Shown: positions 5,667-6,878 of the stretch, piece by piece
How the letters are laid out: every line of letters starts with the position of its first letter
Position numbering within the stretch: the stretch's first letter is position 1
IMG/VR virus record: IMGVR_UViG_2541047895_000001
Span: 1-8,294 of that record
Direction: 5' to 3' (one strand)
Source of the DNA: a virus
Lineage: Monodnaviria; Loebvirae; Hofneiviricota; Faserviricetes; Tubulavirales
DNA length: 8,294 bases
The notes under the pieces: generated by a model
What the model was told of the DNA's origin: nothing
Databases searched by the model: none
The model's input: the letters and a program-made list of their open reading frames with translations, nothing else
Made by a program: the position numbers and the translations under genes

Positions 5667-6878
<1,212 letters not shown>

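Follow-up and report, generated by a model that had tools for sequence, protein, structure and literature searches.

pI is the presumed motor of filamentous-phage assembly. In M13/f1/fd (where the protein is also called gp1), IKe, If1, I2-2 and fs2/VFJphi, its gene lies between those for pVI and pIV, and M13-type pI consists of a cytoplasmic P-loop domain, one transmembrane (TM) helix and a periplasmic domain. Experimental studies of the pI Walker motifs give the consensus as GxxxxGKT/S (PMC5408679; bioRxiv 10.1101/2022.09.21.508815). In M13, K14, D88, E89 and C90 are essential for phage production, and T15, the residue directly after the lysine (K+1), lay outside the mutants studied (PMC5408679). 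M13 Q126 has been implicated in nucleotide contact, and the Zot-like cytoplasmic domain of VFJphi, which has GKS and is ~33% identical to the protein described below, hydrolyzes ATP in vitro (bioRxiv 10.1101/2022.09.21.508815).

Departures from GxxxxGK[ST] have a precedent within the pI family. CTXphi Zot (GAPGSYKT type) has Pro for Leu10 and Tyr for Gly13 (M13 numbering) while keeping Thr at K+1, and it lacks Q126. The Pro10/Tyr13 changes kill M13 gp1 function, and the purified CTXphi domain is without ATPase activity (bioRxiv 10.1101/2022.09.21.508815). The CTXphi deviation shows that the pI family tolerates altered P-loops in nature.

According to a survey of P-loop NTPases/hydrolases, K+1 Ser/Thr is strictly conserved and its replacement is inactivating. 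The commonest exception is Gly, in several NMP-kinase families; there, a water serves as Mg2+ ligand #4, and the Gly is argued to suppress futile ATP hydrolysis (PMC9599734). The adenylate kinase/NMP kinase P-loop, GxxGxGKG[T], places Gly right after the lysine, as does the protein studied here, but NMP kinases have a different P-loop class and fold (with a LID domain), and their phosphate goes to a nucleotide, ATP not being hydrolyzed.

A pI gene with glycine after the Walker A lysine

The window, meaning the whole 8,294-nucleotide stretch of DNA that was analyzed, is an Escherichia coli prophage, flanked by dif, with a complete inovirus gene set. Its features are as follows.

572–2593: P2-gpA-type replication endonuclease, 673 aa (Pfam Phage_GPA)
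3383–3625: major-coat-like ORF
3685–5298: pIII-like adsorption protein with a long Gly/Ser repeat
5301–5663, plus strand: pVI-like minor coat protein gene, directly upstream of pI (PHROG 1944, E = 5e-7)
5654–5658, plus strand: Shine-Dalgarno-like AGGAG, 8 nt upstream of the ATG at 5667 (read from the sequence)
5667–6878, plus strand: pI/Zot-type assembly protein, gene I homolog, 403 aa from the ATG at 5667 (ORF list, Pfam, PHROG and AF2 model)
5682–5705, plus strand: Walker A/P-loop, which aligns with the M13 P-loop GKLGSGKT; G6, G11 and K12 are invariant in 54 homologs
5703–5705, plus strand: codon GGC for Gly13, the K+1 residue after the Walker A lysine and normally a Ser/Thr that is a Mg2+ ligand
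5763–5765, plus strand: Asn33, an invariant polar residue right after strand beta-2 (model strand 30–32)
5898–5915, plus strand: Walker B, A78-L-F-L-D82-E83, with Asp, then the ASCE-type catalytic Glu, then Cys84 (equivalent to M13 D88, E89 and C90)
6024–6026, plus strand: Gln120, equivalent to M13 Q126, at the end of strand 113–118 and invariant in 54 sequences
6450–6515, plus strand: predicted TM helix, residues 262–283 (DSSP helix in the AF2 model and hydrophobic sequence)
6988–8217, plus strand: pIV secretin, directly downstream of pI (Pfam Secretin E = 8e-25; PHROG 1012 'assembly (protein IV of M13)' E = 7e-117)

The codons at 5682–5705, read directly as ggg aat ctg ggt cag ggt aaa ggc, give G6-N-L-G-Q-G-K12-G13. 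An earlier reading of the same DNA, made from the sequence only, had reported a GNLGQGKG loop with Gly in place of Ser/Thr, and both its coordinates and its translation are correct. It had also taken GKLGSGKT as the Ff reference motif and called Walker B intact. M13 pI does read so (8-GKLGSGKT-15 in PMC5408679), and A78-LFLDE-83 is present, followed directly by CATW (5898–5927 for the two together). The loop departs from GxxxxGK[S/T] at K+1 only, with G6, G11 and K12 in place and Gly at position 13, and the Walker B pattern hhhhDE is found as L79-F-L-D82-E83, in which D82 and E83 are invariant in all alignments.

Two profile matches assign the protein to its family: Pfam Zot PF05707, over residues 57–144 only, with a score of 36.2 bits (gathering cut-off 20.3), and PHROG 1675 'morphogenesis (protein I of M13)', over residues 3–280 (E = 4e-51). 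The P-loop region aligns column by column with that of pI from M13, IKe, If1, fs2 and others. Given that alignment and the PHROG 1675 match, GNLGQGKG is no chance motif. Twelve positions are invariant across the 54 diverse homologs, namely G6, G11, K12, N33, P53, G65, G67, D82, E83, W113, D114 and Q120, and Asn33 may contact the catalytic water or a Mg-bound water. The mismatch at K+1 does not remove the protein from the pI/Zot family; it is the published consensus GxxxxGK[S/T] that under-describes the family, because 90 of the 262 non-identical members we sampled have Gly at this position.

Compared with M13-type pI, the N-terminal domain is ~32–35% identical (closest deposited: IKe, PEar, fs2/VFJ, If1 and M13). 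Common to both are G-x4-G-K, a Walker B of the form hhhhDE with Cys after it, and an invariant Gln (Q120 here, Q126 in M13). M13 K14/T15 corresponds to K12/G13, so that Thr/Ser at K+1 in M13-type pI stands against Gly in the window. The N-terminus is two residues shorter than in M13 (MPVITG vs. MAVYFVTG), and there is an insertion around residues 160–200. At K+1 the window protein is also unlike CTXphi Zot: K+1 alone differs, and every other catalytic residue is kept. Just upstream of the predicted TM helix, Met240, Met242 and Met244 are in frame (6384–6398), in the same relative place as Met241, the internal start of pXI in M13 gene I.

An AF2 model built from the 54-sequence alignment had a mean pLDDT of 80, with values above 90 for the N-terminal domain including the P-loop. 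It consists of an alpha/beta domain (residues 1–245), a helix at 262–283 corresponding to the TM segment, and a small beta-rich domain (331–375), and the predicted topology puts the N-terminal P-loop domain in the cytoplasm and, beyond the single TM helix, the C-terminal domain in the periplasm. In a Foldseek search of the PDB, the top matches (E of ~1e-5 to 1e-4) were RecA, the Zot N-domain of Neisseria (2R2A) and STIV B204, a packaging ATPase, and no kinase was among the 50 matches listed. A sequence-profile search of the PDB gave only 2R2A (E = 0.03), with its GTPGSGKT aligned to the GKG loop; no pI structure was found there by sequence search. The closest solved folds are the N. meningitidis Zot N-domain 2R2A and ATPases of the RecA/FtsK-HerA type. 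Ser/Thr stands at K+1 in all that the Kozlova 2022 table lists or that were aligned here, and window identity to these folds is only 10–16%. The Foldseek and 2R2A matches therefore make the predicted domain a P-loop ATPase of the ASCE/RecA-like class, with the Asp-Glu usual in Walker B, and not an NMP kinase. The modeled core has the RecA-like fold, and E83 comes directly after D82, as expected of an ASCE ATPase. The string GNLGQGKG does fit the NMP-kinase pattern GxxGxGKG; the fold does not, as there is no LID or NMP-binding domain and the layout is Zot/RecA-like.

The window itself is otherwise ordinary, a normal conserved gene in a normal prophage. pI sits in the morphogenesis module between the pVI-like gene and pIV, the outer-membrane partner of pI, in the order found in M13, IKe and If1. 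What sets the phage apart from M13-type phages is its P2 gpA-like replication endonuclease and its dif integration. The window starts with TGCGCATAATGT-GACACGCG-TTATGTTGAAA (positions 1–31) and ends with AGTGCGCATAATGT (8281–8294). These ends represent dif-like XerC and XerD arms, with a 12-nt terminal direct repeat; the window is therefore one prophage unit cut at its attachment sites, and these ends fit XerCD-mediated integration. With up to three mismatches allowed, the full 28-nt E. coli dif had no match in the window, since a longer spacer separates the arms here; the arms were located separately.

The pVI–pI region (5301–6900) is 100% identical to chromosomal DNA in two complete E. coli genomes. 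In one, CP027550, the prophage is a tandem pair adjoining the fimbrial (fim) cluster/ydeP, and related prophages with a P0038-type pI (see below) are inserted between hipA and the same fimbrial cluster. The full inovirus gene set, tandem copies and dif-like ends make the phage look alive and the prophage apparently intact. Megablast of the window against INPHARED gave no match; no deposited phage genome there is similar at the DNA level.

Several other features of these prophages were recorded. The pIII-like ORF contains ~19 copies of a 27-nt repeat encoding GGSSGGSTS (4311–4819). RefSeq annotates this gene in CP027550 in fragments (L001 7622–8998: a pseudogene, a minus-strand 'hypothetical protein' and a 423-nt CDS), probably an annotation artifact caused by the repeat. 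Upstream of rep, a 60-aa ORF on the minus strand (296–478) matches PHROG 2503, of unknown function (E = 6e-27), and at this place related dif prophages have small divergent ORFs. After rep, a 141-aa ORF on the plus strand (2624–3049) matches PHROG 30648, with no known function, end to end (E = 2e-97), and occupies the place expected for a ssDNA-binding protein. Related GKG-type prophages at the same dif locus (L013–L015) have different replication modules (G2P_X_C plus Phage_DNA_bind, or Rep_trans); these modules therefore appear to be exchanged between inoviruses with common morphogenesis genes. In a small circular record of 9613 bp, a 'plasmid' of E. coli JNE25-005 (L067; NZ_AP045060.1), there are P0038-type inovirus genes (~92% identity), many of the ORFs are broken and one ISEc31 is present. 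This record probably represents an episomal replicative form in noisy assembly, but we set it aside as a replicative-form copy of a P0038-type phage, as the assembly is riddled with frameshifts.

Distribution and origins of the glycine variant

A search of 5.8 billion proteins returned 89 homologs. Every full-length sequence down to about 32% identity is GKG, and the more distant ones are mostly GKT/GKS; hosts of the GKG proteins are E. coli, E. albertii, Salmonella, Edwardsiella, Enterobacter, Acinetobacter and Plesiomonas. When 1.84 billion cluster representatives were scanned exhaustively with HMMER, 621 proteins matched at E < 1e-3, and the best 150 of these comprised ~28 GKG, ~58 GKT, ~59 GKS and 2 GKN (P0197 and P0232). 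We also scanned one genome per species using patterns that did not include the P-loop, which gave 28 GKG, 13 GKS and 7 GKT. Among its GKG proteins are those of a large Oxalobacteraceae lineage (Janthinobacterium, Duganella, Massilia and Rugamonas, with GKLGSGKGKA), together with those of Azospira, gammaproteobacterial MAGs and one Geopsychrobacteraceae MAG. In a scan of contigs, the window protein alone as query gave no match, whereas an alignment-based scan gave matches.

Pooling these sources yielded 262 non-identical N-domains with 90 Gly, 90 Thr, 80 Ser and 2 Asn at K+1. A neighbor-joining (NJ) tree of the 262 sequences was built with the K+1 column left out; its topology is approximate. 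The enterobacterial clade that includes the window has Gly in all of its 58 non-identical sequences, which reach down to about 35% identity. Parsimony on the tree inferred that Gly was gained 11 times, with 13 maximal clades that are all Gly. By this sequence evidence, GKG arose repeatedly in the M13-type pI family, with at least four well-supported origins and 11–13 inferred. At least four are obvious because of close pairs that differ at K+1, which are listed here with the enterobacterial clade.

Azospira-type GKKGNGKG vs. Rhodocyclaceae GKKGNGKT, 67% identical
P0063 group vs. a Methylovulum GKT protein, 57% identical
Oxalobacteraceae GKGK vs. Comamonadaceae GKTK
the enterobacterial clade itself, as the fourth origin

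One group within this distribution has a further change in the loop. The P0038-type pI of E. coli and Edwardsiella (P0038/P0040/P0047/P0136; 8001–9263 in L013–L015) reads GKMRNGKG, with Arg for the usually conserved central Gly in addition to Gly at K+1.

Among deposited phages, tblastn searches with two queries, the window pI and a GKG pI of Janthinobacterium, recovered the same ~62–63 records, which comprise Ff, IKe, If1, I2-2, PEar, fs2/VFJ/Vaf1, Ralstonia phage 1 and a few metagenomic viruses. None of the six that were translated (M13, IKe, If1, fs2, a Vibrio cyclitrophicus phage and Ralstonia phage 1) has GKG; all are GK[ST]. This sample of deposited phages does not include the bajarodino/Dulem records, and on it the variant would be confined to uncharacterized prophages and metagenomic sequences. 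The term 'GKG' was not found among the top-ranked literature on filamentous phages and Zot.

We considered three described phages as possible carriers. In YpfPhi/CUS-1, a knock-out of YPO2279 abolishes particles (PMC4266046). YpfPhi is probably not GKG and would have a different Zot type, because a CTX-like Zot (GIPGSGKS) is encoded by a different dif prophage in which the Rep gene is shared (NCTC9040, L069) and because the P0038-type GKG prophage had no match in O18:K1-type strains. UPphi901 was ruled out as IKe-like and outside the window's clade (PMC7307601), and the A. baumannii Af phages were ruled out as they are reported to have GK[S/T].

The K+1 Gly is a genuine substitution, kept under purifying selection and fixed in its lineage. 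Five E. coli copies at 86–98% nucleotide identity all have GNLGQGKG, and K+1 is GGC in all six close E. coli copies, while other P-loop codons vary synonymously between copies (GGG/GGT, GGT/GGG, CAG/CAA and GGT/GGA). Compared with the copies that are 87% identical, the window shows a dS of ~0.47 and a dN/dS of ~0.05 for residues 1–240 vs. 0.27–0.30 for the C-terminal part; the ATPase domain is thus under tighter constraint than the rest of the protein. Sub-lineages also differ in the codon they use, with GGC in the close E. coli copies, GGG in the P0038-type prophages and GGT in a Salmonella diarizonae prophage, and all four Gly codons are in use in the Oxalobacteraceae lineage. Different Gly codons within lineages mean that Gly is conserved at the protein level. 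Ser (AGC), a single transition away from GGC, was never found in the 58-sequence enterobacterial clade, and there was no reversion. Two GKG database clusters, P0010 and P0001, hold 519 and 224 members.

The idea of a sequencing or assembly error, or of a decaying pseudogene in a defunct prophage, hardly deserves credence: nothing favors it beyond the departure from the textbook motif, and against it stand an identical gene in two independent complete genomes, GKG kept across hundreds of database members, and an intact 403-codon ORF under strong purifying selection in a prophage with all inovirus modules intact. The suggestion of a sequencing error in the sequence-only reading falls for the same reasons, and also because Gly is kept amid synonymous changes and through varied Gly codons. 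A second suggestion, a tolerated variant, holds more strongly than was proposed, since GKG is fixed in the whole clade and recurs across the pI family; the third, an assembly ATPase with altered nucleotide handling, may still hold. The alignment of homologs that it recommended found GKG conserved in the window's clade; the GKT/GKS homologs in the strain or clade that it had named as refutation did not appear, and the nearest non-Gly relative is only ~45% identical.

Probable ATP hydrolysis in the absence of the K+1 hydroxyl

We think it probable, arguing by analogy, that the GKG protein is a working ATPase in which water replaces the K+1 hydroxyl on Mg2+. The window pI would still bind Mg-ATP and hydrolyze ATP, driving virion assembly. 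A water would fill the space of the missing K+1 side chain and act as the fourth Mg2+ ligand, as in adenylate-kinase-type P-loops, and Glu83 would be the general base. It may be speculated that the basal ATPase rate or the Mg2+ affinity is lower, or more tightly coupled. We prefer hydrolysis because very strong constraint acts on the catalytic Glu, on the Asp of Walker B and on the remaining polar invariants, and because GKG and GK[ST] proteins are otherwise interchangeable and the small genome has no alternative ATPase. The in vitro ATP hydrolysis by the GKS relative from VFJphi speaks for it too. Other considerations weigh on the other side. All six deposited phages that were translated have GK[ST], and K+1 Gly in NMP kinases is argued to suppress hydrolysis (PMC9599734). 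The RecA/Zot-like predicted fold means that the water-ligand precedent from kinases may not transfer, and the description of K+1 loss in hydrolases as inactivating (PMC9599734) counts against a working ATPase.

The alternative that survives best, although we consider it unlikely, is that hydrolysis has been lost or strongly damped, leaving pI as an ATP-binding switch or scaffold with slow cycling or none, while the energy for assembly is supplied by another source such as PMF, a host factor or another subunit. This would agree with the near-universal K+1 Ser/Thr of hydrolases, the loss of which is inactivating, and with the proposal that K+1 Gly in NMP kinases prevents futile hydrolysis (PMC9599734). 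CTXphi Zot, without detectable ATPase activity, persists in nature, and the absence of any Gly reversion in the 58-sequence clade suggests that Gly is favored or locked in, beyond being tolerated. However, Glu83, Asp82, Gln120 and Asn33 are all invariant at a dN/dS of 0.05, and a pure binding module should relax the Glu. The 67% identical pair illustrates how interchangeable GKG and GK[ST] proteins otherwise are in sequence, and the 8.3-kb genome has no second ATPase gene.

Another hydroxyl or carboxylate could instead ligate Mg2+ directly, the candidates being Thr86, Ser108 or a residue supplied in trans by a pI/pXI neighbor. Position 86 is indeed Thr/Ser in 87% of GKG sequences, but it is nearly as often so in GK[ST] proteins (75%). 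Ile106 is found in 10 of 13 GKG lineages vs. 27% of GK[ST] sequences, which hints at local re-packing; an Ile, however, cannot ligate a metal, and no polar residue has been gained specifically and consistently in the independent GKG lineages. We regard such a compensating ligand as improbable. Ile106 (5982–5984) adjoins the invariant His107, and the GK[ST] sister groups mostly have Val/Leu there. The Ile106–GKG trend may reflect co-variation, re-packing around the P-loop helix or error in the NJ tree.

That the domain has turned into a kinase-like phosphotransferase is very improbable: the P-loop string matches the NMP-kinase pattern, and K+1 Gly is otherwise typical of NMP kinases, but the fold search gives RecA, 2R2A and STIV B204 and no NMP kinases, there is no LID/NMP-binding domain, the Walker B DE is typical of ASCE hydrolases, and GKG in pI is followed by Ile/Leu/Lys where adenylate kinases have Thr.

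Consequences for the pI family

The Walker A pattern GxxxxGK[S/T] is used to sort 'functional' from 'degenerate' Zot genes. About one-third of the M13-type pI sequences sampled, including the whole enterobacterial prophage clade, are GKG, and calls based on the motif would wrongly flag them as defective. A recurrent, selectively maintained Gly at K+1 is unusual in a RecA-like ATPase. Matched natural GKG/GKT pairs (up to 67% identical) could be used to probe the contributions of the K+1 hydroxyl to Mg2+ ligation, proton relay and the control of basal hydrolysis.

If a GKG pI hydrolyzes ATP normally, it would be a counter-example to the K+1 hydroxyl as an obligatory catalytic proton relay. If it does not, a large group of filamentous phages would assemble with a hydrolysis-damped pI and a different energy coupling. 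As a tentative and still somewhat doubtful generalization, M13-type pI may be a natural family of ASCE-class motor ATPases in which the Walker A Ser/Thr was replaced by Gly many times independently and the Gly was then long kept. The wider interest would lie in a textbook Walker A rule that is broken often, and stably, in the pI ATPase family.
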